From an uncultured Gemmatimonadales bacterium (lineage in GTDB: Bacteria; Gemmatimonadota; Gemmatimonadetes; Gemmatimonadales; Gemmatimonadaceae), in contig OY969695.1 of NCBI GenBank assembly GCA_963701965.1, positions 3,072,001 through 3,136,000 of the forward strand: a DNA stretch of 64,000 nt, written 5' to 3'. Positions 505 to 53,635 of the stretch are shown in pieces. How positions within the stretch are numbered: position 1 is the first letter of the stretch; every line of letters starts with the position of its first letter. Position numbers and translations under genes: made by a program. The notes below the pieces were generated by a model. It was not told the DNA's origin. It was given only the letters and a program-made list of their open reading frames with translations, and made no database searches.

Positions 505-653
505 AGAGTTCCGATTTCAGGCAATTCCGCGGACGTCATCTGCGACCCGGATTCACGGCATTTTCCGTCATGTTGAGAGCGAAGGCACGGCACCGACGCC
601 CACATTCGCCAACAAGTGCGGTCTTTTGCAGGTTTTCAGGTAGACAACAGGAA
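505..653 (+). repeat. att left arm (L1 type); further copies at ~38573-38670 and ~39776-39880
   Basis: Near-identical ttcacggcattttccgtcatnttgagagcga...cggcaccgacgcc...attcgcca in three places. Confidence 0.85.
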
Positions 654-697
654 GACTGCTAACCGGGAGATCGCTGGTTCAAATCCAGCCGCCCCAG
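654..697 (+). repeat. att core copy 1: 3' half of tRNA-Asn (anticodon loop to discriminator; anticodon mutated to GCT here)
   Basis: gactgctaaccgggagatcgctggttcaaatccagccgccccag, with T-arm gctgg-ttcaaat-ccagc; no 5' half present. Confidence 0.9.
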
Positions 698-739
698 TTT
701 TTTAACTCTTTAAAAATCTGCGACTTGCAGAGCGAGCGC

Positions 740-1380
740 TCAGGCTTCGAGTGCTCGGGGGCGCGTTGGGGTGCGTAATACGCGCCCCCGACCGGTGACT
801 ACTTCCCACTGCTCTCCCAACTTCGACGGCTCGTTCATCACCGCGAGTATCGTGTCGGGATCGGGCTGCTGGTAGCACTTCAATAACATTTGCGTTCCTT
901 TCCACCCGCCTGCCGCTGCGACATCGACGAGCGGGAGATGCTTGCGCTCGGTCGCCCACTTTCGACGGTACGGGTGCCATGCGCCGAGCGGTAGTGGTCG
1001 GAGACCGGCTTTCTCTTCAGCAACGTGCAGCCAGAAGAGAAACATTCTTCGATTCATGAGCCGCAACGGACCGCGCTCACCGGTGAATATCGGTCCCGAT
1101 GTACCGAGCTGCAGCTGAAACGCGGGGATCTCGTCGTAGAGACGACTGGGCAACGGGATGATCCAATCGTTGTTTCGCCTATCTGCGTCGGCTCTCCAGT
1201 AGATACAGCCTTGCTGGAGGTCGATGTCTTCCCACTCGAGCGCTTGAATTGATCCGAGTCGTCGGCCGGTGGTTTCGGCAAGCAGTAGCGCGAACTCGAT
1301 TTTGATCCACCGATTTCTGACCGTCAGATCGTCCGCTTCGCGTGCCAGTTGCTGGAGCGCTGCACGCGTCTTTTCGAAAG
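740..1380 (-). pseudogene. Tyrosine recombinase/integrase, catalytic C-terminal part only (5'-truncated)
   Basis: One open frame with ETTGRRLGSI (Arg), WHPYRRKW (HxxR), GGW and CYQQPD (Tyr); no N-terminus or start; points into the att core. Confidence 0.85.
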
Positions 1381-1936
1381 GGAGCAGTTGGTGACGCTCC
1401 GGGGCGCGGCCACCTTCAATGTGGTGCCCCAGGGGTTCGGCATATTCCGAGTCGCTGCTGGGCGGGTATTCGTCCAGGTGCAGGGGACTCAGTTCAGCAT
1501 CCGGTCGTATCCGGGCGACTCGAGCGCCAGCGCTTTCGTTTCACGAGGGCGCGTGTTGGTGTCAGGCGCGGACCGTAGATCCGTGACCGTCAACACGGGG
1601 GAGCTGGCGCGCATCGTCGGTCGGACCGCGATAGTGGGATCTGGAAGTGCGGACGATCGGGTTTCCTGGGACGGAAGGACGCTGCGGTTTGATCGTGTCC
1701 CGTTGTCCGAGACCATCGAGGTGCTGAGGCACTGGTACGGCGTCCCGATTCGCCTGCGTGACGCGCACCTCGCAGCGCGTGTCGTCACCGCCTCGAATCC
1801 CGTTACTCAGGATGACGGTATAGCGGCACTCTGCGCTGCGGCGAATGTGGAAGGTCAACCATCAGGACGAACCGTCATTCTTTATGATTTTGGCGCCTCG
1901 CTGATAAGTGCCTCGAAGGCGCGGTCGCCGCGTTGA
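1381..1936 (+). pseudogene. FecR-family anti-sigma factor fragment (5'-truncated)
   Basis: VTLRGAATFNV, VQVQGTQFSI and LRFDRVPLSETIEVLRHWYGV are FecR-like motifs. Confidence 0.75.
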
Positions 1937-2002
1937 CCTCGTCGCGAACGATTTTACAAAATGTCGGCGTTTTTACAGATCTGTAACACTCCGCGATATC
2001 TG

Positions 2003-3737
2003 GGTTCTTCGGCAGTTTTGATGATGATCCTGGCTAGCTGGCGCCGGGCACTTCGCTGGCGACTTAGGCGGCGCGCCGGACTCGCTGGCGGAGGAACGCG
2101 AAGCCGGCGCGCCCGTAGCTCTGCCGCTTGAACAACTTCAGCCGGTTCACATGGCCCTCGACCGGTCCGTTGCTCCACCGGAAGCAGATCGCAGCGAGCA
2201 CCGCGGCAGCGTCGCGACGCAGCCCGGCCGCGAGGGACCGGAGTTCGCTCTGTTCGGCCGCCGCCAGCCATGCTGTCAGAGCGTTCGGGTCGCGCTCCCG
2301 GAGCATGCGGCGGAACTCGGCGGCGAGCACGCGCACGGCGGCGATCGGTGGACACGCCGCGCCGAGCGCGTCGAGGTAGTCGCGCTGGCGCGAGGCGACA
2401 GCCTCCGCCGGGGCGCTCAGCAGCCACGCCGTTTGTCGCGGCGACGGGCGACCGCGACATCGTACGATTGTGTCGCGGCCGTCGGTGGTCCCGCGCGTAA
2501 GCGCGCCGCCACCACCCAGTCCCGCACCGTCGAGCAGGCACCACGGAAGCCGCGAGTCGCGCAGAGCTCACGCCAGAGCAGCGTCGCGTTGTGGCAGCCC
2601 TCCGTCCAGCGCTGCCGGAGCAGTGGCATGCGGGCGAGCAGGGTGCGACGCGGCGGTCGCGCACGCCGTTCAGGAAAGACTCCGGCGTGCAGCCAGCGGA
2701 TGATCGTCGCCCGACTGACGCCGGTGGCGCGATGATCGCTACCCCTGAGAGGCCGCGTGCGTGTAACGCGACGATCTGTTCATAGCGAGCGTATCGTCGC
2801 GCGCGCGTTGTCGCGGTGCGTTGCGCCGGTAGCCGGGGCTGCGCCTGGGTTTGGCGACCGGGCCGCCTCGCTCGGTGGGCGTCGGGTTCACCGGCGGAGG
2901 TTACCGGAACCGCGACCGTGCGCACGGTCGCGTGATGCCGCTCGAGGACGCGTTCGACCGCGTCGGTCACGTTCGCAGCAGGTGAAAGCGATCGGCCACT
3001 TGGATCGCGTCGGGCGCGCCCGCCCGTGCACCGTCGGCGTACGCACCCGCCCGATCGCGGCTGATGATTCAACGCCGGGATGGCACGGAGCCACGCGGCG
3101 AGTGTGGCGGCCGCCGATCGGGGAGCACGTCAACCACTCGTCGGCGTTCCAGATCGATCAGCAGGGTGCCGACGATGGCGTCGCCACGCCCATCGTTGAC
3201 ACCCACCACGCGTGGTGTGGGCGCGAGGGGGACGGACTCCCCCTGCATGACCACCCGGCGCACCGTGTCGCCGCTCACGGCCATCCCGAGCCGCTCCGCC
3301 AACCGCGCCCCTGCCTCGCCCCCGAGTCCAAGTCCGATCGCATCCAACGCGGCGGTGAGCCGGGCGGTGCGGCGTGCCGACGGCGCCGCTGTGGCGGGAA
3401 GCCGTTCGGTGAAGATCCGCCGCGAGCAGCCAGCCAGGTCGCAAAAGTAGCGTCGCGTCGTGACGACGAGTTGTACGGCAAGCCCGTGCCAGGGGAGATC
3501 AGCCAGCGTGCGGGGTAGTGGCTGTGGACCCGAGCGGCGTGCGTTCCGCAGCGTGGACACGTCGCTCCTGGTCGGCGGGTCAGTGCGACGACGGTGATGC
3601 CGCGATCGTCGACGGCGAGGTGCGACAGGTGCAACTCCGGGGACGGGCGGCGGCGGCGTGGTGTCCAGACCGGTCTCCAAGGTCGCGCCGCCCATCAATC
3701 TCCGCCCGCCGCCGTTCACCAAAAGTCCGGCAGAACC
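2003..3737 (-). mobile_element. ISL3-family insertion sequence with a frameshifted transposase
   Basis: CPRCG zinc finger, RRIFTERLP and WSNGPVEGHVNRLKLFKRQSYGRAGF spread over several frames; terminal IRs ggttcttcggcagttttg / caaaagtccggcagaacc. Confidence 0.9.
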
Positions 3738-3769
3738 CAATTATCTCCGCCGTTGACAATCTATACTGT

Positions 3770-6252
3770 GGCGCGCGCTCTCGAGCCATTTTCCAAATCA
3801 ATCAGAGCGTCGTAGTACTGGCGGATGCGCTCTGCGCTCGGCGCATAATCATCGGAGCATGGTGAGCGGATGGTCGTCGTCCATGCCGATCACACGATCT
3901 ACTAACTTCGCTGAACACCCTGCCTCGTTTAGGATTGCTCGCGCCCTGTCGCTGTTAATGTTGTGCGCCCCTGTTTGTCTCTTTAGAATCACCTGCGCCA
4001 CGTCGGCAACGAGTTGTGAAGCCGTAATGCGAATCTCCTCTTCGCCCTGTTGAAGGCGTACTCCTGAAGCTGTTGGATCCTTCGAATACTAAGCGCCTCC
4101 TTTAAGCGTTGATCAATCGTTGCCCACGCTCGTTGCTGGATTGCCGGTCCCTCCTTGGTGTATCCCGTTATATCGTATCGCAACCCGTTTAAGCTGCGAC
4201 AGTGTGCAGCCACTGGGTCAATCCAACCACGGCGGTGCGACATCAGGATTACTTGGCGCTTCTCTTCCTCAACGAGAGCCCGCAGTTAATGAATTGAATC
4301 TCGTGCTCGTCATCCCATGATTGGATTGGGTCGTCTAGTACAATGAACTCAAAGGGGCCTGGTGCACGCAGTGCAGTAGCGACGCTCACGCATAACCCTA
4401 AAGCATTGAGTTTTGATTCACTCAGTGACGAGACGGCGCTCGCGAGCTCCACGCCGTAGGAAGCAGCAGCAACCTTGACACGACGGTTCTTGAAGTCGCC
4501 GGTCTTGGTGCGCTCCATGCCGAAGCCTACAAAATGAACGTCAGGGTCACTTGTGGTTCGGATCCGGCTGTACCAGTTCATCACATCGCCAGTCAACTCG
4601 CTTGAAAATGCCTCCTCCATCGTTTGCCCGACGGTATGATCGACTTGTTTCCTCAGGCTCTTTAGTCCGGTCACTACGTCTCGAATACGCAAGCCGCGGT
4701 TGATGTCACTACGACTATTCAACATCTCAATGAGCAGGCTGAGCTCTGCGGTTCCTGCTCGCGCGTCGACGGCTTTTTCTAGAAGGCGAGAAGGGTCTGC
4801 TAGCGTCGGTTCGAGTTCGGAAAGCTTGCGCGCGTATTCGTCGGCCGCACTCAGATAGTTCATGCCAGCGTCAATGAGGAGTTCGATCTGCGACACTTCC
4901 TCGTGCCTGGTTCGCACAGCATCTGCGCACACCTCGGCCGCATTGATCACTTCTGACGCCGCTTGCCGCAATTGGGTGAGGACAGGCGTGATCGCTGCAC
5001 CGGCGGCCGCGACTAGGAATAACTCGTGTTCGTGCCCCTTTCCGAACAGTGCGTTGATTTGCGCACTACGCTCCGGCGTGTTGGCTTCAACCAGGTCCGA
5101 ACATCGGGCGCTGTACAATGCGAGGTGCGCGGTAACACTATTGCTAAGATCCTTTAGGCCGGCAGCGACCTGACTTCGGAGAACTCCTGGTTCCGCGTCT
5201 GCGCCAAGTGAAGCGATCAACACCGCATAGCGCTGGGCAATTCGGTCGCGCGTGGCAGCATCCAACGATTGTTCGCAGAGCGGGCAACCGGCGGGCCGAT
5301 CCTCGAGCAGGTCCACGCCGAGCTGTAGCAATTGCACTTCTTTCCTTAACCTTACAGAGACATCGGCTACAGCCAAGCGGATGTAGTCAGTACGCGATTC
5401 GGCGGCTATCGCGCGTTCAATGCGATCGCGTGCGGAGGCGGCGCGTTGATTCTCCGTCGTGGGCAGGGGTTTAATGCCCACTGACCCGGCGAAGACTTTC
5501 TCTGCGGCCGCACTGCGCAGCTCTACGAGTTTCATTGAAACGATATCCGGATCGGCGTTGACACCGATCAATCTGATCGCCCTTTTGTGAAGCCTATCCC
5601 ATGCGTCTGGCAGTCCGTTGCTACCTTGCGCCAACGACTTGGCTATCGCTCGTGTCTCTTTGATCGACTCGAGTCGGCCCTCGAACAGCTCTACGGATGC
5701 TAACAGCTCTTTTGCACGCGCCGGCAACTGCGCTTCTGGCTTCGTGCACAGATTGATAAGCGCAGCTTGCAGTTGGTCGATCTCGTGCAAACCGAGCAGG
5801 CGGGCAAACCCTTGGAACCGGTCTGACGGCGACGCTAGCAGTAAACTCTTCAACGCATGCTGCACTACAAACGGACGCGCGGCCTTTGCCGCGGCCGCAG
5901 CGAATGGCCACTCAGTCACAGCTTGGCCATTTACGAACCGGTGTATTTCTGACCCATGCAACTCAGCTCTTAGTGCTAAGTCATCTGCGTTGTCGCTACA
6001 CTCGGCTTCGACGAACGGTACTTGGTCTGACGCAAAATGCCGATTCGTGTACGAATCCTTGTACTCTTCTTTGGAGTCGGCAGATTCGACCTTTGAGGTT
6101 TGGCCAAAGATTAAGAATTCGAGTGCCTCGATGATACTGGTCTTGCCGTAGCTGTTTGGCGCGGCAATGAGCGTAATGTCGGCATCGAACTCGATTGTCT
6201 TTGTCGCGTTGAATCCGCGAAACCCGCCCACGGTCAGCCGTCTAAGCCTCAC
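3770..6252 (-). pseudogene. SMC/Rad50-like ABC ATPase with Zn-hook; 3' end frameshifted from ~4290
   Basis: Walker A APNSYGKT, coiled coil with CPLC, LSES signature, Walker B IVLDDP; H-loop VILMSH lies in another frame. Confidence 0.8.
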
Positions 6253-6427
6253 GGAGAATCTCTCTCACTATCGCGGCGAGCTCGTGTTCAAGTGAGACCC
6301 GTGAATCTAATGTGCGCGCTGCCTTTACTAGCCGTACATGAACCGGATCACTGACGCGCGCCGCGAGTGCCGTTAAGAACCTCTCGGCCGCCTCGGATCG
6401 TACCCCTTTGAATGGATAGGTCACCAT
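6242..6427 (-). CDS. Small hypothetical protein overlapping the ATPase start (possibly a truncated partner)
   Basis: 61-aa ORF whose stop overlaps the ATPase 5' end. Confidence 0.45.
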   Translation of the reverse strand: MVTYPFKGVRSEAAERFLTALAARVSDPVHVRLVKAARTLDSRVSLEHELAAIVREILREA

Positions 6428-6919
6428 TGGCGAGGCATGAGATTAGGCGTAGCTGTCAGTCGCAGTTAGCGCTGTAACGCGCCGGCCTGGCGGACCTTGG
6501 ATGCGCGTTCCGTTAGCGGTGGCTTGCATCGACCGGTGTCCCGCTAGCCATCGTGGGGCGACTTCGCAAAGGACAACGCAATGCCGGCGTCGGGGTTGAC
6601 GAATGGGTGCGCATCGCGTGCATGGTGGAAGCGTCGCCGCGAGGCTCACCGCGCCTCGGTCTTCGCGTGGCGCCGACCCCGTATCTGTTCGCGTTGGGCA
6701 GCGCGGAGCGCCCGTTGTGCGGCGCGGCTCGCGCGCAGTATTGCGGTGGCGAGACTGCGGTAGGACAAAGGGCCGATCCTCGAAGAGGGAAACAGATGGG
6801 ACCGCCTAGGCGCCAAATGTTCGCACGAATTTGGACAACGCGCAAGCCCGGTTGGAGGGTCATCGCTTGCTGTTAGATCGACGACGCTTACGTTCGCTCG
6901 TAAGTACGATATCACGTAC

Positions 6920-6948
6920 TTTACAAGAGTATCTGTTGAAGATATAAT
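6920..6948 (+). promoter_or_regulatory. Sigma70-type promoter of the HTH-hipA operon (probably leaderless)
   Basis: TTTACA-17 bp-TATAAT, with the ATG 5 nt downstream. Confidence 0.7.
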
Positions 6949-6953
6949 ACATA

Positions 6954-7295
6954 ATGCCAAGATGGGTGCCAGCCCTACCATTGCCGGTCAGGCGGACGCT
7001 CGCACGGCTGGGCGGCGACATACGCAATGCACGACGACGGCGCCGCCTCCCCATGGCTGTCGTCGCGAATCGGTCGGGCATCGCCCGCCAAACCCTTCAA
7101 CGGGTCGAGCGCGGTGATCCTGCTGTATCGCTGGGCATCTACGCCACTGTGTTGTTCGTTCTCGGCCTGGTCGATAAGCTGGCTGTCGTCGCGGCTGTGG
7201 AGGGTGATGCCGTCGGGCTCGCTCTTGAGGGGGAGCGACTTCCCAAGAGGATAAGACAAACAGCTCGCCACGACTCTTCGTCGAAGGAAGAGTGA
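6954..7295 (+). CDS. XRE/HTH antitoxin (HipB-like)
   Basis: IRNARRRRRL...GIARQTLQRVERGDPAVSLG HTH; GTGA overlap with hipA. Confidence 0.85.
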   Translation: MPRWVPALPLPVRRTLARLGGDIRNARRRRRLPMAVVANRSGIARQTLQRVERGDPAVSLGIYATVLFVLGLVDKLAVVAAVEGDAVGLALEGERLPKRIRQTARHDSSSKEE

Positions 7296-8575
7296 GTCCA
7301 CCAACGGCTCTTGTCTATGTAGATCTGCTCGGTATCACGCACCGAGTGGGTCGATTGTGGGCCGTGAGCTCCCACGGAAGAGAAGGGGCCAGCTTTGAGT
7401 ACGACGGAGAGTGGCAGCGGCATCCTGAGCGTTTCGCACTGGAGCCGGCTCTCGAGGTCGGACCCGGAGCGTTTCACACAGCGGGCGACCGTGCGCTCTT
7501 CGGGGCGCTCGGAGATTCGGCGCCGGATCAATGGGGGCGTTCGCTTATCGCTCGGAGTGAGCGGCGTAACGCTGCGGCGGAAGGCCGGGCGCCACGGACT
7601 CTCCGTGAGATTGACTACCTCCTCGGTGTGTCCGACGTAGCTCGGCCTGGCGCCCTACGGTACAAACGCGATCCGGATGGGCCGTTCGTGGCGGACGGCG
7701 ACCAGACGGTCCCGCCGCTGGTTGCGCTGCCCCGGCTGCTCTCTGCTGCGAACCACGTAGAAGCGGCCGACGAAACCGACGAGGATCTCCGCCTCCTGCT
7801 CGCACCAGGCTCCTCTCTGGGCGGGGCACGACCCAAAGCCTCAGTCCGCGACAAGAAAGGGCATCTCCTCATCGCCAAGTTTCCCTCGCGAAGCAATGAC
7901 ATCAACGTGGTACAATGGGAGGCGGTAGCGCTAGAGCTTGCGCGTCGAGCGGGGATTCCGGTGTCACTCTCGCGCGTAGAACGAGTGGGAGAACAGGACG
8001 TCCTTCTCGTTCGGCGGTTCGATCGGGAAACCGTTGCAGCCAGCCAAGGTGATATTTCCGAACAGCGGGTGCCGTTCTTGTCGGCAATGAGCATGCTCGA
8101 CGCGGCTGACCGCGAGGTGCACAGCTATCTCGAGATTGCGGACGCGCTCCGACGCTATGGGGCTGATACCGTGACGGACCTTGTCGACCTTTGGCGACGC
8201 GTGGTCTTCAATGTGCTCGTGTCCAACCTCGATGATCATCTCCGAAATCACGGCTTTCTCTACGCTGGACTTAACGGGTGGCGCCTGTCGCCGGCATACG
8301 ATCTCAATCCAGTCCCGGCCGACGTGAAACCACGATTCTTGACAACCACTATCGCTGCGGACGAGGACGCATCCGCCTCTATCGCGCTGGCCCTCTCTGT
8401 CGCGAAAGATTTCGGCGTTCGAGAAAAGGAAGCGCACACGATCGTGCGCCATGTTGGCGAGGCAGTGCGACCATGGCGAAGCGTCGCGTCGCACTGTGGA
8501 CTCACCCGTTCCGAGTGCGACCGCATGACAAGTGCGTTCGAACACGAGGACGCTGAGATCGCGCGCCACGGATAG
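7292..8575 (+). CDS. hipA: HipA-family serine/threonine kinase toxin
   Basis: GSSLGGARPK P-loop, IAKF, NLDDHLRNHGF, LSPAYDL. Confidence 0.92.
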   Translation: MSPPTALVYVDLLGITHRVGRLWAVSSHGREGASFEYDGEWQRHPERFALEPALEVGPGAFHTAGDRALFGALGDSAPDQWGRSLIARSERRNAAAEGRAPRTLREIDYLLGVSDVARPGALRYKRDPDGPFVADGDQTVPPLVALPRLLSAANHVEAADETDEDLRLLLAPGSSLGGARPKASVRDKKGHLLIAKFPSRSNDINVVQWEAVALELARRAGIPVSLSRVERVGEQDVLLVRRFDRETVAASQGDISEQRVPFLSAMSMLDAADREVHSYLEIADALRRYGADTVTDLVDLWRRVVFNVLVSNLDDHLRNHGFLYAGLNGWRLSPAYDLNPVPADVKPRFLTTTIAADEDASASIALALSVAKDFGVREKEAHTIVRHVGEAVRPWRSVASHCGLTRSECDRMTSAFEHEDAEIARHG

Positions 8576-8990
8576 AACGCCGACGAAGGTCGCCGTGGGC
8601 AAAGGTGAGACGTCAGTACGCGTGCAATATCTGACGAAATTGCCCGATTTCGGCATTCAACCTGTAGTTAGTGCACTCACATTTTCGGCATCACAGCACC
8701 AGTACCCGATCCGGCTCCTTCTCGTAAGATGTCGCGGACTGCTCGTACAGCCGACATCCGGCGTGCTCCGGCAATGAGCTCGCAATGGAACGCGCGTCGC
8801 GCTCGGCGTCCAAGATCTGTCCGCTGTCGTCGACACAAGCTATGTCGAGTTTATCTCCGTCAGTCCGAGGTCTTCCTGCGAGCGGTGCCTCGGGCGGCAC
8901 GATCCGGCCGACTGCTCAACGTGATATCGTCCGCACCCGCGCTCATTAGTTGGTTCGATCGCGGGGAGCGCACAAATTTTAACGTTGTAC

Positions 8991-9587
8991 ATGGTTAACC
9001 AATCAGGCCAGGAATTGAACGCTATTTGGCCGGCGCACGAGGCCTTCTATATCGACAGCATGTTGTTTATTAGCTCGTCGGCGGTTGCTTCCATCGATCA
9101 GGTTGCAGAGGCGCTGACAGCGGTAGTGCGCGGCGACGTCGCGCCTGACGCGCTTGATCAGGATGCAATTTTGGATCTACTCCAGCATGTCCTGATCCAA
9201 GGTGCTGCACTCTCCCGGTACTTTTGGCCTGCCCGGCGAGGTCATGAGGCGAGAGCGAAATATCTTCGCTCAGCGCTCGCGGTCACGGATACAAGCGCTC
9301 TCCGGAGCCGCGGCTTGCGGAACGCGATCGAGCATTTTGACGAGCGCCTCGACGTATATCTCTCGGGCCACGTCGTGGGTCACATTCTCCCGCACTACGT
9401 CGGGCGCACACCGTCACAAGATGCTGGGGTGCCGCTACACCTATTCCGGGCCTACTTCGTCGATCGGGGCGTCTTCTCGCTCTTAGGCGAACAATACGAA
9501 ATGCAGCCCATGGTCGACGAAATAGGTCGCATCCATGATTTGCTAGTCGCGTGCGCGGAGGCCGGGGGTCGGCTGCAGACGACGTAG
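8991..9587 (+). CDS. Hypothetical protein with a HEPN-like Rx4H motif
   Basis: Intact ~198-aa ORF containing LRNAIEHFDER. Confidence 0.65.
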   Translation: MVNQSGQELNAIWPAHEAFYIDSMLFISSSAVASIDQVAEALTAVVRGDVAPDALDQDAILDLLQHVLIQGAALSRYFWPARRGHEARAKYLRSALAVTDTSALRSRGLRNAIEHFDERLDVYLSGHVVGHILPHYVGRTPSQDAGVPLHLFRAYFVDRGVFSLLGEQYEMQPMVDEIGRIHDLLVACAEAGGRLQTT

Positions 9588-10024
9588 CGTTGTGTAGCGA
9601 GCTGGTCGCGTGAGGGCGTGTCGAGTGAGGCGTGAGCAGGCACCGTTGAATTCCCGGGAGAGCTGCCACTGGGTGTCTCGCCTAGGAGTTCGAATGCAGG
9701 TGGTTCAGTCCCTGCGACTAGCTGTTATCCCGCGGCTCGTTGACCTCAATACTCAACGCCAGCAGCCGGACGCGCTCCTCAAGCTTATCGAGAAGGTCTT
9801 TGATAGCGCGCTGGGCTAGGAACGGCTTTAGCGACTCGCGATGCTCGGGCGCCAGTGGCGGGAGATTCGCGCGGCCAGGGTAGTGCTGATGCAATCGTAT
9901 CCCGGCCTCGCCCGCGGTAAGAAACTCACTCTTGTCACCGTCTTGTCCTACGAGCGACCCCCGTGGAACACAAAAGCCGTCGGCCCACGCGCCGAGTTCG
10001 ATGGGACGGTCGATCCCGTGTGCA

Positions 10025-10345
10025 AGGAGCTGGCGCGGGGAGCGGTGCGGGCGGGAGGAGCGATCGCGCAAGCCGGCGCGCCCCTCCACGCGGTAGCGGC
10101 GCACCCATTTGCGCGCACTCTGCGCACTGAGCCCGAACGCGGCGGCCGCCTCCGGGACCGTCCACCCGTCGGCGAGCACGCGCATGACGAGACACACTCG
10201 CCCCGTGAACCCCAGGCGCGCATTCTTGTGACTGTTCACTCGGTCCTCTGGCAGTTGCTGGTCGGTGGTCCAGACAACCCCAGCTTGTAACCGCTACGAC
10301 CGGGTAAACACCCCCAACCCCGAAACAACGTGTCCGGTAATCACA
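10025..10345 (-). mobile_element. IS481-family remnant (left end and transposase N-terminus) fused to an unrelated gene fragment (~9718-10025)
   Basis: MNSHKNARL...KWVRRYRVEGRAGLRDRSSRPHRSP; TGT-starting end tgtgattaccggacacgttgt on the minus strand. Confidence 0.8.
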
Positions 10346-10429
10346 TCTAGGGGCAGCTGCACTCCCCGAGACCCGTTTCCAAATGCCAGGATTCTGCTGG
10401 ACCACGATGTGGATCTCTTGCAATCGTGG

Positions 10430-10514
10430 CATTGCCGTCGGATAACTCCGACACCGACGCTCGGTCTTGCTTTCAAGTACGGCAAATTGTTGATTTATAA
10501 GGACTTACACGAGC
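10430..10514 (+). repeat. att left arm (L2 type) with an IHF-like site
   Basis: caccgacgc-13-caagtacggcaaattgttgatttataaggactta; reverse complement AATCAAcaatTTG matches WATCAAN4TTR. Confidence 0.85.
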
Positions 10515-10740: not shown

Positions 10741-10768
10741 CGAACGCGTCAATGCCTCAGTCCCACAC

Positions 10769-12510: not shown

Positions 12511-12529
12511 CTTGGGGGCCGTTTCCTGC

Positions 12530-14013: not shown

Positions 14014-14017
14014 ATAT

Positions 14018-45090: not shown

Positions 45091-45969
45091 GCAGCACCAT
45101 ACACGATCGACATATCGTCATTCTGACGCGCAATGTCAGATTTGACATTTAATCGGTTATTGTAGGGTCTCGCTACGCGACGGCGTCGTCGAGTCATTGT
45201 CGACGCGCCCGATGCGTTCGCCGGGCGCGTGCTATGGTCACAGGCTCCAAGACGATTCAATTTCCGGCCCAAGCGGCCGATAGAGGGTGCATCAAATGGG
45301 AGGTCTCTTTGATCATCCAGGCTATCTCGGATTGACATCGCTGGGGGTAATCGCGATTCATGCAGACTGGCCAGTGTATCCTGCCGAGCATGGAAGCGAG
45401 GTCGCCCTGCGGACGCTCGGCCAGTTTCCACGCGACAACTCGCTGTCGGTCGTGGACAGCATAGATCAGTGTTTCCTGTTGCGTCTCGATACGCCACGGG
45501 ATATGAAGGACCCCTTTTACTGCGCGATCTGGCACAAAGATGCGCTCGAGTTGTTGACGGCGGGATTCATTCGTGGTCGCTCAAACCTTATTCCTATCGA
45601 CTGGATCAATGCGCACGGAGCGCGTCCCCTGACTATCGGTCTGATCTCGGCTCGTCAACTCGTCGGCCAGCGCTAGCATGCTGACGCGCGCTTGGATAAG
45701 CTTCTCCCTGGTGTCCATGGGCTTCACCCCCGGTAAGTGTGGTTGTCTCGACAACACCAGCTTACCACCGGGCGAGGATCATGGGCACCTCGCTTTTACG
45801 TCACACTGTCCGCCGATCTCCCGCTAAGTACACTTTTATCCGCGCGGCGCACGGTCCTGACCAACGTCACCTCCAACCACGAGCCCGAGAGTACGGAACG
45901 CTACGGGGTCCTTCCCACACTTGTCATCTATCTCCGCCCCAGTTTTGGTGGGTTGCTACTGGTAGCACT

Positions 45970-47370
45970 TCACTCAGGGGCCGCTCTTGACTTCACGTCC
46001 GCGTGCGCCTCGGCGTTCAGACTGACAGACTCCTTCGCTCGCGCCGCGAGCCGGGCACTGAAAAGGTGCTGTCGAGCGACCTCCTCGCCACGACTGGTCA
46101 GCACACTCTCTCCCGTCTTTTGATCGCGTCGGAGATGAGCGAGTCGGCGACCGTGCAAAACGCCCGAAGTGCGAGTGTCGTAGCCGTGTCGCTTGAGGAG
46201 GCGGGCGAGCTCTCGCCGACTGATGCGTCCGCCGCGCTCGTAGATCTCTGCGATGATGACGTTTGTGCCGGGAGCGGGTAGGGGCGGTGCTGAGTCAGCG
46301 GCAGCCACGGCGCGCGTATAGTATCGTCCCCTCCGCTGTCCGTGCGCGCGCAGCAGACCATGTGCAGCCAGTGCGTCGACATGGTATCGGACCGTGCGGT
46401 ACGGCATGCGCAACTGCACGCCGATCGCCGTGGTCGTCGCGCGGCCGAGCGTCGTCACGAGATCCAGCACCTGCTGTTGAATGTCGGACAGCTCGATCAG
46501 CGAATGCTCGACCCGAAGCTTCGCCTCGAGCGATCGTTGCTGTGCGCGCTGCGCCTGGAGCAGGAAGAGGAGCCAGCGACCGAATGACGCTGGGTCATCG
46601 CGCATGGCGATCTGCGATTCTCGCAGGGCGGCGTAGTACGCGGCCTTGCTTTCTTCGATGACCCGTTCATGTGACGCATAGGGCACATAGTCGTATCCCG
46701 CTCGCAGTAGCAGCAGTGTCGTCAGAGCTCGTGCGAGGCGTCCGTTGCCATCCTGGAAGGGATGGATGGCGATCAAGTCGACAATGAAGCGCGCAATGAC
46801 GACGAGCGGGTGGATGATCTGGCCCTCGAGCGCCTGGTTCGTCGCGGCCACGAGCGCAGCCATGAGACGAGGTGTATCGAATGGACTCGCGGTCTCGAAG
46901 ACCAGCTCCGTATGCCCGTCAGGGTGTCGCGCCTCGACATTGTTCGGAAATTTTTTGTACTCCCCTCGATGACGCTCATCCTTTTCCGAGTACTTCAGTA
47001 GGACGCTGTGAAGTTGCCTGATATGGTTTTCGGTTAGCGCGATCGCAGTCCAGCTATCGTAGATCAGCGTCACCAGCTCACCATATCCGCGCACCTCCGA
47101 CTCGTCGCGCGCACGGAACGAGTCGATGTGTAATCCCTCGAGTACTCGTGCTACCTCGGCGTCGCTGAGCTCGGCCCCTTCGATCCGGGTTGAGCTGGCG
47201 GTCGACTCGATCGTCGTGACTTGGCGCAACTGTGCCAGGCGCTCGGTCCGGACTTCGTTCACACGCCGCCAATGCCCTTTGAACTCATCGATCTCGCCGA
47301 TGAGCCGGAGCATTTCGGCGGTTTGAACACGACTGAGGCTAGGAAGAAAATCGTCGGGCGAGAGTGTCAT
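45970..47370 (-). CDS. Fic-family protein with C-terminal HTH region(s)
   Basis: STRIEG inhibitory motif, HPFQDGNGRLAR. Confidence 0.92.
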   Translation of the reverse strand: MTLSPDDFLPSLSRVQTAEMLRLIGEIDEFKGHWRRVNEVRTERLAQLRQVTTIESTASSTRIEGAELSDAEVARVLEGLHIDSFRARDESEVRGYGELVTLIYDSWTAIALTENHIRQLHSVLLKYSEKDERHRGEYKKFPNNVEARHPDGHTELVFETASPFDTPRLMAALVAATNQALEGQIIHPLVVIARFIVDLIAIHPFQDGNGRLARALTTLLLLRAGYDYVPYASHERVIEESKAAYYAALRESQIAMRDDPASFGRWLLFLLQAQRAQQRSLEAKLRVEHSLIELSDIQQQVLDLVTTLGRATTTAIGVQLRMPYRTVRYHVDALAAHGLLRAHGQRRGRYYTRAVAAADSAPPLPAPGTNVIIAEIYERGGRISRRELARLLKRHGYDTRTSGVLHGRRLAHLRRDQKTGESVLTSRGEEVARQHLFSARLAARAKESVSLNAEAHADVKSRAAPE

Positions 47371-47580
47371 ATGTGTTGCCGACAGGTAGCCGACAAGCCA
47401 TAAGCCGGCCGTCAATAATGTTGCCGATAGATTGCCGATAATTAACCGCATTTTCGGGTTCGCGCCAGAGGGGCGAGGTGCCCGGCTGCTTCTACTACGG
47501 ACGTTTCATGCCACCCAACGTCGACAGAGCGATCGAAGCCGAATCTGCCTGCCCACCACACCGCACAACGAGGGACATCG

Positions 47581-47700
47581 GTGGCTTACTACCTTGATCC
47601 ATACTCGCCACAAACCTACGAAGCGTTCAAAAACTCTGCACACTCCCTCTCTGGTTTTCGCCTCAGGCAGAAGAGCATTGCCGAACGAATTAGAGAACAC
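47581..47700 (+). pseudogene. N-terminal fragment of an EVE-like domain protein
   Basis: MAYYLDPYSPQTYEAF...SGFRLRQKSIAERI with a GAGG RBS; truncated before the att arm. Confidence 0.45.
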
Positions 47701-47784
47701 AGTCTTTTCTCGCGCCACACCGACGCGGCTGGAGTGGACGTTCGGACGTCGTTGTGGTGCGCGATACCAATAACTCGGGGACGT

Positions 47785-48145
47785 CTATCGGGAAACGACG
47801 GCACCGGCGCCCAGTCTCCCTCCCGAGTACGGCAAATTGTTGGTTTATGGTGACCTACCTGGTCGACTGTTAACCGGGAGACCGCTGGTTCAAATCCAGC
47901 CGCCCCAGTTTTGAACTAACGCAAAATCATCGACTTGCGCCTTCGACACTCAGCCCACGAGTGCTCGGGGGCGCGTTGGGGGCGCGTAATATCCGTCCAC
48001 GGCCCGTAGCGATTTCCCACTGCTCACCCAACTTCGACGGCTCGTTCATCACAGCGAGTATCGTGTCAGAATCGGGCTGCTGAGAGCACTTCAATAACAT
48101 CCACGTCCCTTTCCATCCGCCTGCTGCGGCGACATCGCCGAGCTA
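47785..48145 (+). repeat. att junction: L2 arm, tRNA-Asn core (47865-47908), R1 arm and integrase 3' remnant (minus strand, ~47950-48145)
   Basis: Core gactgttaaccgggagaccgctggttcaaatccagccgccccag; 48014-48136 matches 802-925. Confidence 0.92.
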
Positions 48146-48183
48146 GGCGTTGGTTGTGAGTGTAACCGCGGGTGTATCAGCGT

Positions 48184-49362
48184 TCATCGCTGCGCAGCTT
48201 TGGCTCCAGATCTCGCCTCACTGACGACATCGAGGATTTCACGGGCGAGGTACACTCTGCCTCTGGCGTTCCCAGTCACCTCTGCAAGAATTCCATTGCG
48301 TTGGAGAGTGTTGATGCAACTTTGCGCTGTGCGGAATGTGACCCCTAGGAAGCCTTTCGCCAAATTGGCCGTTGTTACTGGCACGACGAACAATTGATCA
48401 ACCAGCTTCGTGGTGAGCACTGAGGCGCGCGCGACTTGGCACCGGTTCCGAAATTCATCTCTCAGCGCAAGCAGCTTAGTCAATCGAGCAACCGCGTCCG
48501 TGGCTTGTTCGCTTACTCCCTGCAGAAAGAATGTGATCCATCCTGTCCACTCGCTGCGCTGGCTTACCGCAAGCAGGTGATCGTAGTACGCCGTGCGGTG
48601 GTTCTCGAAATAGGCGCTGAGATAGAGTAGCGGCTGGGTCAGAACTCCATCGATTGCCAGTAGCAATGCGATCAGCAGCCGGCCAATGCGTCCGTTGCCG
48701 TCAAGGAATGGATGAATCGCCTCGAACTGATAATGAATGAGCGCGAGCCGGATCAGGGGGGGGATGCTTGAATGTTGATGGAGGAAGACTTCGAGGTCAT
48801 TCAAGCATATGCGCATTTCGTCCGGCGGTGGCGGAACGTAGCGCGCGTCGCTCAACGGGCAGTTCGGGGCGCCGATCCAATTCTGCGACGTTCTGAACGC
48901 GCCGGGCGTCAGGTGGTCGCCTCTGACGCCATCGAGCAACTTCGAGTGAAGCTCACAGAACAATCGCGAGCTGACCGGAAGCGTTTGCTGACGCGTGAGC
49001 CCGTACTCGAGTGCCCTGACGTAGTTCGCGACTTCTTGTACGTCCGGTGCCTGTGGTGTGACGCTTGGAGCGGCCTCGAAGAGAAACAGATCTGACAGTG
49101 AGGCTTGGGTGCCTTCAATACGGCTGGAGAGTACAGCCTCTCGCCGCATGAACGGTGCAATGAGCAGGTGCGGATTGGCCAATGTCTGCGCGACACCGGA
49201 GAGTCGTCCTACGGCACGATCCGCTTCGGACAGTTGCCTGATGAGTTCGGTGTCCCACTCGAGTCCGCTCGGAGGCAGCGGATCTGGGATGAATGCCCAA
49301 TAACCGGCAGGCATTTTCTGAAGTCTGCCGGAAGGGTGATCGTTGAACTCATTGCGGTCCAT
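48184..49362 (-). CDS. Fic-family protein
   Basis: EAVLSSRIEGT, HPFLDGNGRIGR. Confidence 0.93.
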   Translation of the reverse strand: MDRNEFNDHPSGRLQKMPAGYWAFIPDPLPPSGLEWDTELIRQLSEADRAVGRLSGVAQTLANPHLLIAPFMRREAVLSSRIEGTQASLSDLFLFEAAPSVTPQAPDVQEVANYVRALEYGLTRQQTLPVSSRLFCELHSKLLDGVRGDHLTPGAFRTSQNWIGAPNCPLSDARYVPPPPDEMRICLNDLEVFLHQHSSIPPLIRLALIHYQFEAIHPFLDGNGRIGRLLIALLLAIDGVLTQPLLYLSAYFENHRTAYYDHLLAVSQRSEWTGWITFFLQGVSEQATDAVARLTKLLALRDEFRNRCQVARASVLTTKLVDQLFVVPVTTANLAKGFLGVTFRTAQSCINTLQRNGILAEVTGNARGRVYLAREILDVVSEARSGAKAAQR

Positions 49363-49601
49363 TGGTTGGCTGTGCGTGAGTAATGGGGAAGACTGATCCG
49401 AGTCGACGAGCTGGTCGCGGGCTTCTTTGTAGTATGAAAGTACCACTAAACTGCCAGTTATTATATTATTCCACTAAAAAGTATAATAGCGGCCGGCGAG
49501 AAGTACGTGAGTACCGCTAGCCCGGCTTGGCAGTGCCACTAAAGTCGCACATATTAGTGTGACTATAGTAACACCCATCCAAACTCCTCAGAGAGGCTCG
49601 C

Positions 49602-49835
49602 ATGCCGATTCTTCTCAGCAAGACTCGCCCGCAAGGGGCCTCCGTCGTCACCACGCTGCCAGCCGAGGTCGCCCGTCGGCTCGGCATCGAGGCCGGCCAA
49701 GAGTTGGAGTGGATCGAGGATGGATTGGGCGGATTCCGCGTCATCCCGCACACACGAGAGACCGCCGAAGCACTCGAGGCACATGCCAAGGTCATGACGG
49801 AATACGTTAGCGTGTTCAGAGCCTTGGCGAAGTGA
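49602..49835 (+). CDS. AbrB/MazE-type antitoxin
   Basis: GASVVTTLPAEVARRLGIEAGQEL...VFRALAK. Confidence 0.85.
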   Translation: MPILLSKTRPQGASVVTTLPAEVARRLGIEAGQELEWIEDGLGGFRVIPHTRETAEALEAHAKVMTEYVSVFRALAK

Positions 49836-50242
49836 GCGCGGCACGCCCATCAGATGAACCGCGCTGGCTATCGGAATCCACTCTCTTCGCGATCCACGCG
49901 CAGCAGATCGAACGGTATGGCGGAGCGCACGGCGTGCTTGATCCGAACGTCGTGCACCCCGCCCTCGCGCGCGCCATCAACCGCTGGGCCTACGACTCTG
50001 ACGCCGATCTCGCCGATCTGGCCGCCGCCTACCTCGTCGGCTTCGCCCGAAGCCAAGGCTTCAGCGGCGGCAACAAGCGCACCGGTCTCGCGTGCGCGCT
50101 CGTCTTTCTCGCGCTGAACAACGCCGCCCTGCACGTCGCTCCGGCGGAGTTGTACGCGCTCACGATGTCGGTCGCCACTGGCACCGCCGATGACAAAGTC
50201 GTTGCCACCTACCTTCGGACTCGTCTCAGTCCTCAACCGTGA
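49832..50242 (+). CDS. Doc-family (death-on-curing) toxin with a divergent motif
   Basis: QIERYGGAHGV...LAAAYLVG...SQGFSGGNKRTG; GTGA overlap with the antitoxin. Confidence 0.85.
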   Translation: MSAARPSDEPRWLSESTLFAIHAQQIERYGGAHGVLDPNVVHPALARAINRWAYDSDADLADLAAAYLVGFARSQGFSGGNKRTGLACALVFLALNNAALHVAPAELYALTMSVATGTADDKVVATYLRTRLSPQP

Positions 50243-50460
50243 GGGACATTTGACAGACTGGGTGCGCTGGAGCGCTTGTCCGGATAGGCCGAGCCTGGCC
50301 GGTCGGGATGGGTCGTCAGACTACTCGGTGCGCGACCGGCCGATCGGTTGATCGTTGCACGGGGAAAGCTTTCCGTGCTCCGACGATGAGTCAGGATTGT
50401 AGATAAAAACGTGCGGACGTTCTATCGCTTTTTGTGCTCGCATTTTATACATTTACGGCT

Positions 50461-52047
50461 GTGACCGCGCAGCGTGGGACCCTCCGAGAGCGGGCGCTCG
50501 CTTGGTGGCGAACGCGCACCGACGCGCATCGGTATGTCGCCGGCCGACAGGACTTCCCTCCGACTGCCGAGACGCGTGCGCTCCGCTCGATGGGGCTTGT
50601 GGTCGAGGTCGCCGAAGGCGGCGTCTGGATCTTGGTTCGTCCAGACGACGCAGATCCGACTGCCCTCCTGCTCCGCAACTATTGGGCGGTGATCGCCGCA
50701 GTCGAACACGCGTACGCACCAGCTGTGGTGGAGCGGCTGTCCGCGGTGTACTTGCACACCGATAACGTGGACGCACAGCCCGAGCTCTCCATGCGGCATG
50801 GAGCCAACGCCAGTCGACGCACGCTGACATTGGTCGATGGATATACCGTGCGGCTGACACCGGGCGACGTCGGCGCAAGCAAGTCCGTAACGGTGCAGGG
50901 TGCGGTGATCACGCTCGACAGCGTGGCGCGTACGCTCGTACAGCTCAATGCCGGCAATGTTCGGCGGGACACGCCTGCCGTCGCGCTCTGGCTGCGGCAC
51001 GCTGCGGTGACGCACGCCGAACTCGCTGCGACGTATGCGGTCAACCCACGCCCGGTGCTGCTCAAGCGAATGGGCCTTCTCGCCCGCGCGAGCGGGAACC
51101 GGCGCCTGGCCGATCTCGTGGAGACCGTGCTCGCCGAACATGCCGAGCGGCCCGCATCGGCCTCGGCAACCGGCGTCGGCCGGTTGATTACGATTCCCGT
51201 CGGTCTCGAGACCATGCCACGGGGCGCGACGGCCTGGCTGGACCGCCACAGCCTCATGATGGCGGAGTTCCGGACCAAGATCGCAGGCGCGATCGGGACA
51301 AGATCCGCCGCGCTCCCTCGTGCATCGTTGGCGCGCGTACTCCGTGCGGCGAAAGCCGCCAAGGCCTATGACGCCTATCACTCAACGACTATCGAAGGGT
51401 ATCGGATCACGCGCGAGCAGGCCGACGCGATCGTTGCAGGGCGCCCGCTCGGCGACGAGAGTCTGGAGGGTCTACGCGAGAGGGCGGCACTGGTCGGCTA
51501 CTCGGCGGCATTTGACGAGGTCACGCGCGTGATGTCGGCGGCGCGCGGCCCCGTGCGCATCGACGAGGCGCTGATCTTCGATCTCTACGAGGCGCTCTTC
51601 TCCCCGTCCGTTGACGCGGGCCTGCTCGGCGCCAGCGACCTCCGCCAGTGGCGTCGGCAACCGGCATATATCCGGGGGAGTCCTCACGTACCGCCGGCCG
51701 AGGGGAAACTGCCGCAACTGATGTCGGCGTTCGTCGAGTCGATCAACCAGGACCTCGACAAAGATCGGGCGGTGGAGCGTGCGGTGTTAGCGCATCTGGA
51801 CTTCGTGACCATCCACCCCTTCGTCGACGGCAACGGTAGGATCGGACGGTTCTTAATGAACATTGCGCTCGTCGGTGCGGGCCTGCCGTGGGTGACAATT
51901 CGAGCCGACCAGCGAGATCGGTACTTCGCGGTGCTGAGGCAGGCCCAGCCGATGGACGCGGATCCGATCCCATTCGCGCGGTTCGTTTTCGATGGGGTCC
52001 GTGCGGCAACGCGTGCGATTACGGGTGAGTCGACAGGACGACAATAG
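50461..52047 (+). CDS. Fic protein with a long AbiEi-like N-terminal region
   Basis: YHSTTIEGY, HPFVDGNGRIGR; start uncertain (50434 or 50461). Confidence 0.88.
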   Translation: MTAQRGTLRERALAWWRTRTDAHRYVAGRQDFPPTAETRALRSMGLVVEVAEGGVWILVRPDDADPTALLLRNYWAVIAAVEHAYAPAVVERLSAVYLHTDNVDAQPELSMRHGANASRRTLTLVDGYTVRLTPGDVGASKSVTVQGAVITLDSVARTLVQLNAGNVRRDTPAVALWLRHAAVTHAELAATYAVNPRPVLLKRMGLLARASGNRRLADLVETVLAEHAERPASASATGVGRLITIPVGLETMPRGATAWLDRHSLMMAEFRTKIAGAIGTRSAALPRASLARVLRAAKAAKAYDAYHSTTIEGYRITREQADAIVAGRPLGDESLEGLRERAALVGYSAAFDEVTRVMSAARGPVRIDEALIFDLYEALFSPSVDAGLLGASDLRQWRRQPAYIRGSPHVPPAEGKLPQLMSAFVESINQDLDKDRAVERAVLAHLDFVTIHPFVDGNGRIGRFLMNIALVGAGLPWVTIRADQRDRYFAVLRQAQPMDADPIPFARFVFDGVRAATRAITGESTGRQ

Positions 52048-52254
52048 ATCGGATCCGTCCCCCACCTACCGAGAACAGAGCCGTTTTCTCGGATGCCTGA
52101 TCCGCGGGCAGCATCCGTGATGCCAACCCACGCGCTCGCGCTCGAGTACTAGCGTCGGCGGACTCTCGGTGTAGCGTTCTGAGCGTCGCCCCGTCGACTG
52201 CCTGTGGCGGGCCGACTCGAGTCGCGCGCCACGCGCACACCATAGGAGACACCA

Positions 52255-53445
52255 ATGCCGCGTACTGCTGTGAATCTGGTGATGGCTCTGACTCCGGTCG
52301 CGCTCGCTTGCTCGAACGTGCCCGACCGGGTCCTCGCGCCGAGCCGCGATCTGTCAGTCGCCGCCGGCGTGATCCCGTTCGCCAGCGGCGTGCACACGGC
52401 GGCCATTCCCGCGTTGGACCAAACACAACACACGCGGTATATCCCCATGGCGCTCAATGACTGGGGCTTGATCGTCGGCCAGCGGCTTTCGTCCGATACT
52501 CTGGGTACAGCGTTCAGGTGGAGTGCGCACTTCGGTCTCCAGCTCACGCAAAGCGGCGACACGGTGTTGAGGGTCAACAACGCCGGGGATGTGGCGCTGT
52601 CGGAGCCGGGCAATCCCGGAACCGACTCGCTTTTCCCTTCCGAGAACGCAGCCATCTGGGACTGGCAGGGCAATGTACGGCGCCTGCGCTTGCTCTCGAC
52701 GTTCTTCATTCCGGTCGTCATCGGGAGTGGAGATAACTCTCCCGCGTGCGCCGGCACGGGCGGTATCACCAATGCCGGCGTAGTGGTGGGATTTTGTGTC
52801 GTCGCGGGACAAGGTAGGGTGCCAACGATCTGGACGAAGTTCGGTACGCCATGGCCGATCAGCGGGCAATTGATTAAGGGGTATATGCCGCACGGGATCT
52901 CCAGCACCGGATTTATCGCGGCCGGCCCGGAAGGTATCGACGGTCACGCGCTTGTGCTCACGATGACCGGAGCCCAGCGAATGCTGCCAGACCCGCCTAT
53001 GGGAGCCGGTCACGCCGGGACCGATCAGACGGCGGCGTTGGCGGTCAATGACAGCGGATGGGCGGCGGGCTACCGGGTGGTGGGCGACACGGCGGGCCGC
53101 TGCTCGGGTGGCCAGAGCGCCCAGGCTGTCGCATGGCTCGCGGCGGACACGGCCATCGTTATCGGCGACTGCAGCGTGAGTCTCACCTTTCCGTCGGCAG
53201 CCGCAACTGGGATCTCCGACGACGGCATCGTCGTTGGCATTACCACGGATCCCGCGTCGTTGTCGCCATTCGCGTTTGTCTGGACGGCGACCCGTGGGCT
53301 GCAGCGACTCCCCGGACTGGAGGGGGGTGGGGCGCAGACGCAAGATTGGAGCGGAGCGGTGGCGATCAATCACAAGCATCAGGTGCTCGGCTGGGTCCGT
53401 ACGTCTGTCGGTGTGTATCGCACGGTGGTGTGGACGCTGCCCTAA
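52255..53445 (+). CDS. Secreted/lipoprotein with HAF-like extracellular repeats
   Basis: LAC lipobox; repeated ALNDWGLIVG, AVNDSGWAAG, GISDDGIVVG, AINHKHQVLG; GGAG RBS. Confidence 0.8.
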   Translation: MPRTAVNLVMALTPVALACSNVPDRVLAPSRDLSVAAGVIPFASGVHTAAIPALDQTQHTRYIPMALNDWGLIVGQRLSSDTLGTAFRWSAHFGLQLTQSGDTVLRVNNAGDVALSEPGNPGTDSLFPSENAAIWDWQGNVRRLRLLSTFFIPVVIGSGDNSPACAGTGGITNAGVVVGFCVVAGQGRVPTIWTKFGTPWPISGQLIKGYMPHGISSTGFIAAGPEGIDGHALVLTMTGAQRMLPDPPMGAGHAGTDQTAALAVNDSGWAAGYRVVGDTAGRCSGGQSAQAVAWLAADTAIVIGDCSVSLTFPSAAATGISDDGIVVGITTDPASLSPFAFVWTATRGLQRLPGLEGGGAQTQDWSGAVAINHKHQVLGWVRTSVGVYRTVVWTLP

Positions 53446-53492
53446 GTCGGCGGAGCCGGGGGCGCGTGCCGCGTGACGCCGTTTCGTGGCAG

Positions 53493-53635
53493 CGACGTCG
53501 CGAATTGCAGACAGACATGTCCGTAAGCGCTTTGGCGAGAGGCTGTTGACCGGGAGAAAACTCGCGTATCGCGTCGAACACGGCCGCGGACTGCTGATCG
53601 TATCGAGATTCAAGGTCGTCGAGACGGCACGCATG
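53493..53635 (+). repeat. Degenerate att junction: left-arm piece, core start (ggctgttgaccgggaga, 53541-53557) and ORF6N remnant
   Basis: 53493-53523 resembles 12533-12563; 53560-53632 matches 10859-10930. Confidence 0.7.

Follow-up and report, generated by a model that had tools for sequence, protein, structure and literature searches.

A stretch of 64,000 nucleotides from an uncultured Gemmatimonadales bacterium (GCA_963701965.1, contig OY969695.1, positions 3,072,001 to 3,136,000; hereafter the window) carries part of a long array of cargo modules separated by partial copies of a tRNA-Asn gene. The best-supported reading of this array is the tandem accretion of integrative mobilizable elements (IMEs) and of integrase-free modules resembling cis-mobilizable elements (CIMEs). 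The locus is probably a stack of tRNA-Asn islands with chimeric attachment (att) boundaries, left by serial visits of integrase-excisionase elements that carried integrase-free modules along. The process is known, but it is here unusually deep and clearly laid out. All coordinates given below are window positions (the window being G000:C1:3072001-3136000 in our numbering), with negative values lying to the left of the window.

The host genome (G000) is a single contig of 5.1 Mb with 67% guanine plus cytosine (GC) and an estimated completeness of 94.96%. From the window alone, the initial annotation had listed nine same-orientation junction relics and predicted an intact tRNA-Asn to their left, starting with TGGGGCG. 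An intact tRNA-Asn(GTT) is indeed present 23.6 kb left of the window (-23593 to -23521; G000 3048407-3048479), although it starts with TGGGGTG. Twelve junction marks follow over 77 kb to the right of this gene, all on the + strand: the nine relics are all real, and a mark at 45934 and two marks left of the window are added to them. Core and arms are retained at six marks (-21511, -3444, 656, 10517, 12639 and 47867), where a full 42-bp core reproduces the 3' half of the tRNA from the anticodon loop to the discriminator base with 40 to 42 identical bases (41 at 656, 42 at 10517, 40 at 12639 and 41 at 47867). The other six have lost most or all of the core. At 18420, the tRNA is reduced to its last 9 bp, followed by a right arm, and the mark at 45934, absent from the earlier list, is a second junction of this short-tailed kind in the window. 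Near 23.7 kb, the core is deleted and a left arm directly abuts a right arm; only left arms remain at 38.6 and 39.8 kb; and at 53543 a 15-nt core piece with one mismatch is preceded by a decayed left arm. The modules so delimited measure 1.2 to 18 kb, against an initial estimate of about 1 to 15 kb.

The cores are not scattered over the genome in random orientation. Eight full copies are found on the + strand and none on the - strand, corresponding to the tRNA, the six array junctions and one remote junction at G000 4293849. The 15-nt core sequence, allowing one mismatch, occurs nine times in the 5.1 Mb, always on the + strand and each time at the tRNA or at a junction. No further cores were found right of the array, where the GC fraction stays at 0.61-0.66 until about +130 kb, and a search of viral contigs with the core gave no match. 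A second tRNA-Asn(GTT) of the genome (G000 1063835-1063908) is unrelated to the targeted one.

The anatomy of the boundaries can be read directly from a pool of 35 core copies in 12 stretches, comprising six intact tRNAs and 29 junctions. The pool was drawn from the G000 array and its remote site, four relatives of the same genus and five metagenome loci (distinct DNA among 14 rows, after removal of repeats and overlaps). Every boundary consists of a left arm, the tRNA 3' half from the anticodon loop and a right arm. The first base of the anticodon loop matches the tRNA in 28 of the 29 junctions and the preceding base in 3 of 29, so that identity sets in exactly at the loop. This bears out the earlier view that the tRNA-like part begins at the loop without the 5' strand of the anticodon stem, and supports a crossover within the loop, with serial integration giving rise to attP-like chimeric junctions. 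A CGGCACCGACG motif is located 65-71 bp left of the crossover point in 28 of the 29 junctions but in none of the six tRNA flanks; at random positions in the island its rate is 0.8%. A motif matrix trained without G000 exceeds a score of 30 at nine places of this genome, of which eight belong to the array and one is the end of a tRNA-Pro island. In another genus (g76), the same motif also precedes tRNA-Asn halves beside pieces of homologous integrases; arrays of such halves with broken homologous integrases occur there in G289 (contigs C85, C137 and C370; loci L047, L049 and L050) and in G209 (C440; L051).

The arms belong to a few types. Left arms are of type LA, of type LB or of a third type seen in relatives, and right arms are mainly RA or RB; all four LA/LB by RA/RB pairings are found. 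RA corresponds to the 3' end of the integrase gene, and eight of nine RA-type ends match integrase proteins. RB, which forms the left end of its modules, is non-coding and conserved over about 170 bp. It carries a CTAACT-N9-AGTTAG palindrome at +9 in 15 of the 35 copies, and in most of these two or three CAACGGCACC-like repeats lie beyond the palindrome. In all 15 cases the palindrome holds its +9 position while its 9-bp spacer varies freely, a pattern that would be expected of a site for a dimeric protein. Integrase homology is absent from the 250 nt following each of the 15 RB arms when searched against 122 proteins. RB was also considered as the end of another integrase, and this was rejected, as none of the same 122 proteins matched. 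An ORF6N gene or gene fragment follows RB directly in six cases, and an excisionase-like fragment in one (locus L041).

The location of the integrases is likewise observed. The initial annotation had pictured an integron-like platform of non-autonomous units served by an integrase encoded elsewhere in the genome. In G000, searches with PF00589, tblastn and a clade profile revealed no intact member of the tRNA-Asn integrase clade; they returned only stumps and two homologues, 50-55% identical, located at tRNA-Pro islands. Each of these homologues is split by a frameshift in the assembly. Of 14 conserved genes lying outside the island, 13 are intact, but sequencing or assembly error may nevertheless account for the frameshifts. 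Pieces of integrase DNA are present in at least seven places of the array. C-terminal half-integrases, recognised as PF00589 pseudogenes, are found at 656 and -21511. The N-terminal part is replaced in both by the same unrelated DNA (91% identical), which argues that this integrase end was copied after the N-terminal loss. Stumps lie at 12.5, 12.7, 22.2, 45.96 and 48.0 kb. Because at least seven places of the array keep such pieces, many modules are decayed autonomous elements and not born cassettes. The description of the units as non-autonomous holds in that most of them have no integrase and they behave as units from one genome to another.

Full-length enzymes are found in relatives. In G001 and G005, a tyrosine integrase of 430 amino acids faces the tRNA and is preceded by a gene that we call excisionase-like from its size, position and sequence, without a family match. 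Such full-length integrases occur only in the tRNA-proximal modules of these two genomes, and none was seen in internal modules of the ten stretches scanned. The integrase belongs to a mobile element entering at the tRNA end in these two relatives. The first module of G005 has the make-up of an IME, since it combines the integrase with a MobP-like relaxase and a T4 coupling protein; no VirB4-type match was obtained among its scanned ORFs (open reading frames). A relaxase-integrase IME of this kind is not present in the G000 array. Outside the array, G000 has relaxase genes and one VirB4-like gene. For the integrases P0002 (L006:12051-13343) and P0001, no NCBIfam model gave a match at E 0.001, and only the generic PF00589 is recognised.

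The core pattern was searched in 301 genomes of the family, a survey that misses diverged tRNAs and in which fragmented assemblies hide arrays. It matched in 72 of them, with at least three copies only in G000 (8), G005 (10) and G289 (7). Full cores number ten in G005, nine of them internal, two each in G001 and G003 and one in G002; the similar arrays of other assemblies have different cargo. Six arrays have a visible tRNA. Their first module opens with a full integrase in two (G001, G005), a stump in two (G002, G003) and an RB arm in two (G000, L041), and no integrase trace occurs in the RB-first units. Decay increases away from the tRNA in G001 and G005, while in G000 and L041 it is the proximal unit that has no integrase trace.

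Module 3 of G000, consisting of an RB arm, an ORF6N gene, a permease gene and an LA arm, is integrase-free and recurs in other species. Comparison of module order places it third in both G000 and L041 and eighth in G005, with neighbours that differ. At four-fold degenerate sites, the permease module differs from that of G000 by 0.16 (G001), 0.17 (L041) and 0.35 (G005). The two genes left of the tRNA differ by 0.49-0.58 overall and by 0.51-0.54 for G001 and L041, so that in these two the silent divergence of the module is a third of the chromosomal value. Similarly, DNA identity to G001 is 91-93% for the module and 85% for the rpoB/C region. Since its silent divergence is well below that of the flanking genes and its identity to G001 above that of the rpoB/C region, the integrase-free permease module most likely crossed species after they had split. 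Other cargo is shared as well: in G003, unit 2 has a counterpart in L039 (86%), and the AbiEi/AbiEii cargo of unit 1 has counterparts in L040 and L035 (80%). ADOP-family permease genes, such as that at 19522-22077, are recurrent cargo across this island and those of relatives.

From this anatomy we infer how binding, excision and mobilisation would proceed. An arriving integrase-excisionase element would cross over in the 7-bp anticodon loop and restore the tRNA. Each arrival would push older modules rightwards, and the elements would later lose their integrase, each junction then being a chimera of the right end of one module and the left end of the next. Because every junction keeps a left arm, a core and a right arm, any pair of junctions could serve a visiting integrase as attL and attR, allowing it to cut out a single module or several consecutive ones. 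Excised modules may travel with the mobilizable element in cis, or be reinserted by its integrase in trans; the sharing of modules across species lends such movement indirect support. The G000 array would currently be idle for want of an intact integrase. Integrase-free modules may have arisen by deletion from an integrative and conjugative element (ICE) or an IME, as the stumps in RA modules suggest; RB modules show integrase homology in 0 of 15 cases.

A further possibility, which we regard as tentative, is that RB modules form a natively integrase-free family of cassettes, in which the non-coding left end of about 170 bp and a right end of about 100 bp capture cargo that a passing integrase inserts in trans. 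It is unlikely that the locus is a one-way graveyard, where autonomous elements entered once, decayed in place and were never remobilised site-specifically, sharing being due to homologous replacement. Such a history would agree with the integrase remnants in at least seven places, with the loss of most or all of the core at half of the marks and with distal cargo that has no boundaries and is shared between species at similar identity. It is poorly reconciled with integrase homology after none of the 15 RB arms as against eight of nine RA-type ends, and with RB opening the tRNA-proximal module, expected to be the youngest, in G000 and L041. The replacement DNA shared at 91% by the half-integrases at -21511 and 656 also argues against it.

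Integrons are marked by IntI, attI and attC sites, the R''/R' boxes of which fold as single strands (consensus RYYYAAC...GTTRRRY), and by mostly single, co-oriented cassette genes. An integron-like platform, on which a resident integrase encoded elsewhere adds, excises and reorders cassettes, would account for the many small arm-bounded units (1.2-6 kb) and for the four arm pairings, and the integrases linked to tRNA-Pro do share the left-arm motif. It is nevertheless very improbable, given that no intact enzyme of the tRNA-Asn clade was found in G000, that both tRNA-Pro homologues are frameshifted and that no IntI family match was obtained. None of the 18 junction strings has the attC consensus (z -1.0 to -1.8 for the folding of whole junctions), and from the tRNA to 47865, 14 genes are on + and 22 on -, in multi-gene modules of up to 18 kb. 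The likeness to an integron is functional, with small cargo units lined up at a single locus and open to exchange; the array differs in having no IntI or attC and apparently no attI, in its lambda-like att sites on a tRNA half, in its multi-gene bidirectional units and in a recombinase that is itself mobile and absent from G000. The array is not an integron, as it lacks the three features tested (IntI, attC and single co-oriented genes), although it may work like one. The arms might instead be RNA or regulatory elements, such as terminators or promoters, copied together with tRNA halves. GC hairpins in RA and in some other right ends, and the folding of core plus right arm (z -0.9 to -3.6, tRNA T arm included), point in this direction. 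RA is integrase coding sequence, however, the distance between left motif and crossover is constant in two genera and in a tRNA-Pro island, and the RB palindrome combines a freely varying spacer with a fixed position, which makes this reading as doubtful as the previous one, if not slightly more so. That the repeats are assembly artefacts or due to chance can practically be dismissed: apart from the genome being a single-contig assembly nothing favours it, whereas arms of the same type are 68-93% identical to each other and never identical, the cargo is unique and other assemblies contain similar arrays.

Several points weigh against the accretion of visiting elements as set out above. That core bases are lost with increasing distance from the tRNA is no more than a trend (Spearman -0.54, p 0.07, n 12), and the core at 47867 is intact. 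Neither an empty tRNA-Asn site nor a clear right-hand island boundary (the B' side) was found among relatives, and neither an excision circle nor a changed module order inside a single species was seen, no sequencing reads being available. As to the permease module, the L041 contig ends before its right end, the permease gene lies inside the G001 island without arms, the high-identity segment having lost them, and the divergence control consists of two flanking genes and one operon. Distal cargo without arms is also 85-90% identical between species, so that transfer of island DNA need not be att-mediated and may reflect homologous exchange instead. The arm motifs are proposed as integrase-binding sites from their position alone. 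The consensus of the host factor IHF is WATCAANNNNTTR; with at most two mismatches, it occurs at fixed positions (-34 and +16) in about one third of the 31 copies scored, and the genome has one HU/IHF-family gene.

Within the window, the left end (1-287, +) is occupied by the 3' part of an ADOP-family permease gene that belongs to module 3, which begins at the -3444 junction. An LA arm (534-650, +), with its motif at 588 likely to be an integrase arm-type site judging from position, then leads to the core at 656-697 (+) and to an RA arm (698-800, +) that overlaps the 3' end of the integrase gene. The latter is a pseudogene (740-1378, -) covering the C-terminal half (profile positions 218-414 of 415). 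The cargo of module 4 (1954-10430) includes an SMC-like ATPase, a HipA-like kinase, an IS481 piece and other broken ORFs. The ATPase (4249-6252, 667 amino acids) has LmuB as best PADLOC match (E 3.5e-21), and no partner nuclease was recognised adjoining its gene.

An LB arm (10426-10512, +, motif at 10449) and the perfect core (10517-10558, +) are followed by a non-coding RB arm (10559-10760, +) with the palindrome at 10568, repeats at 10632 and 10653 and no integrase homology. Facing this arm is an ORF6N-domain gene (10769-11329, -), a frequent companion of RB. An integrase stump of about 100 bp (12440-12545, -) is fused to the next LB arm (12548-12633, +, motif at 12571), after which come the core with 40 matching bases and a 100-bp RA stump (12639-12781, +). 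A gene-free micro-module at 12451-12639 was considered here and rejected, as its apparent core tail at 12451 aligns equally well as integrase sequence. Module 6 (12724-18400) contains a class V aminotransferase, a GntR-aminotransferase regulator and a CbiZ-like piece.

The short-tail junction that follows (18390-18600, +) has the 9-bp tRNA end, on the acceptor-stem side, at 18420 and an RB arm with its palindrome at 18438. Module 7 (19196-23540) encodes PadR, an ADOP permease, an integrase fragment (22144-22322, -) and an Xre/RES toxin-antitoxin pair, and ends at the LB-RB fusion, which precedes an ORF6N fragment (23645-23989, +). In module 8 (23910-38519) are found universal stress proteins, a response regulator, a PAS histidine kinase, a BON protein, a P-type ATPase, a GNAT protein and a SulP transporter. 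The four universal-stress-protein genes, two-component system, BON protein and P-type ATPase at 23910-35952 resemble a stress or dormancy regulon. The coreless LA arm at 38560-38669 (+) is succeeded by a truncated one (39776-39882, +), the right end of a 1.2-kb methyltransferase module. The second short-tail junction (45904-45975, +) shows the upstream pattern of 18420 and a 14-nt integrase remnant after the tail. This pattern is common to three ends with no more than 9 bp of the tRNA left (18390-18428, 45904-45942 and L040:6244-6282), possibly marking a second class of elements crossing over at the T/acceptor junction; drawn from these three ends, it did not turn up in any of 200 further genomes of the family.

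A Fic-domain gene (45970-47451, -) is the only cargo of a 1.9-kb module that ends at an LB arm (motif at 47799), the core at 47867-47908 and an RA arm with an integrase stump (profile positions 368-415), all within 47776-48143 (+). Module 12 (48184-53445) comprises a SoFic-like gene, an AbrB/MazE-like antitoxin with Fic/Doc, another Fic gene and an ORF of 396 amino acids of unknown function; four Fic-domain genes, one a strong SoFic match, are therefore packed into 6 kb over two modules (45970-52047). The last, decayed junction (53475-53642, +) retains an LB remnant (motif at 53487), the core piece at 53543 and an ORF6N fragment. Cargo is duplicated inside the island at 86-91% identity (-6208 to -3565 and 66311-68959; 16955-17094 and 38804-38940; 22406-22482 and 57389-57464). 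The first of these segments stops exactly at the start of an LA arm, hinting at more erased junctions right of the window. An IS21-family element at 61943-64448 has four other copies at 97-98%, one of them within an IS3-like element at -11614.

Other tRNA genes of G000 show comparable traces. Stacked 3' copies are found at tRNA-Arg(ACG) (four), tRNA-Pro(GGG), tRNA-Gly(CCC) and tRNA-Gln(CTG) (two each), and about ten tRNAs have one. The targeted tRNA-Asn has a 30-bp T-arm stretch in common with tRNA-Pro(CGG) (93%), the islands of which use a homologous integrase. The lone remote tRNA-Asn junction (G000:C1:4293790-4294231, L004), 1.2 Mb off, has a partial LA arm, a core and an integrase stump, and sits between two displaced tRNA-Pro(GGG) halves in the opposite orientation. 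The genes preceding it share 83-90% identity with genes of the distal tRNA-Asn island in G003 and G005, which suggests exchange between arrays at different tRNAs.

Comparison with described systems refers to the portions of the cited works available to us. The published model in which IMEs decay to CIMEs and accrete in three steps (PMC5704250, section 7) fits this array. As in streptococci (PMC5704250; PMC7563491), integrase-free elements of 1.2-13 kb with att sites share one target gene and chimeric internal att sites, and a functional IME adjoins the target, as in G001 and G005. The composites of S. salivarius consist of two or three elements, with CIMEs always farthest from the target (PMC7563491), whereas G000 has twelve marks and G005 nine full internal cores, and the module next to the tRNA is integrase-free in two of six arrays. 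This contrast is softer than it looks, since CIMEs could be detected in that study only in tandem with an ICE or IME (PMC7563491). No counterpart of a shared non-coding RB left end free of integrase remnants was found in these portions of the streptococcal accounts (PMC5704250; PMC7563491). In Dehalococcoides, several islands lie in tandem within 100 kb of the ssrA gene, 16 with and 15 without an integration module (PMC3146451). That system is alike in its 3'-end repeats with a conserved motif beside them and in the fixed cargo-rich region past the last repeat; it relies on a serine recombinase, the tmRNA T-loop and a 20-bp repeat, as opposed to a tyrosine integrase, the tRNA-Asn anticodon loop and a 42-bp repeat here, and its cargo is dehalogenases, as opposed to general cargo (PMC3146451).

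The Islander islands likewise combine a tyrosine integrase with a tRNA 3' fragment in attP, and the 42-bp cores fit their subsite A (anticodon), while subsite J would fit the 9-bp tails at 18420 and 45934 (PMC4383910). An intact tRNA, co-oriented 3' fragments starting at the anticodon loop and an integrase gene beside att, as expected for subsite A, are all found here. Islander kept tandems only if each member had its own integrase, with four tandems of at least three in 2168 genomes, a filter that would largely drop the present array (PMC4383910). Tycheposon islands of Prochlorococcus (10.1101/2020.12.28.424599) resemble it in the tRNA seed, the proximal entry, the degenerate distal material and the integrase facing the element end. 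The host differs, and the relaxase and coupling protein point here to conjugative mobilisation; the likeness concerns island growth. A recent preprint treats tandem att-delimited islands as routine (10.64898/2026.01.13.699239). As far as these works allow, depth, integrase-free proximal modules and the shared RB end set the array apart, and no literature on such arrays in Gemmatimonadota was found.

Tools built on the presence of an integrase largely overlook integrase-free islands, which bears on how much of bacterial island growth can be ascribed to them. With the full integrase and excisionase-like gene of relatives, 29 aligned junctions and a module shared across species, the locus offers a kit for a direct test. 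If RB ends do not recombine, it would be a well-documented, deep case of ordinary accretion in a little-studied phylum. If they do recombine with a visiting integrase, small att-bounded cargo units would be active passengers and not debris. Should RB modules be cassettes, the tRNA-Asn gene would be a genus-wide site of cassette exchange, integron-like in operation but served by an itinerant, visiting integrase.

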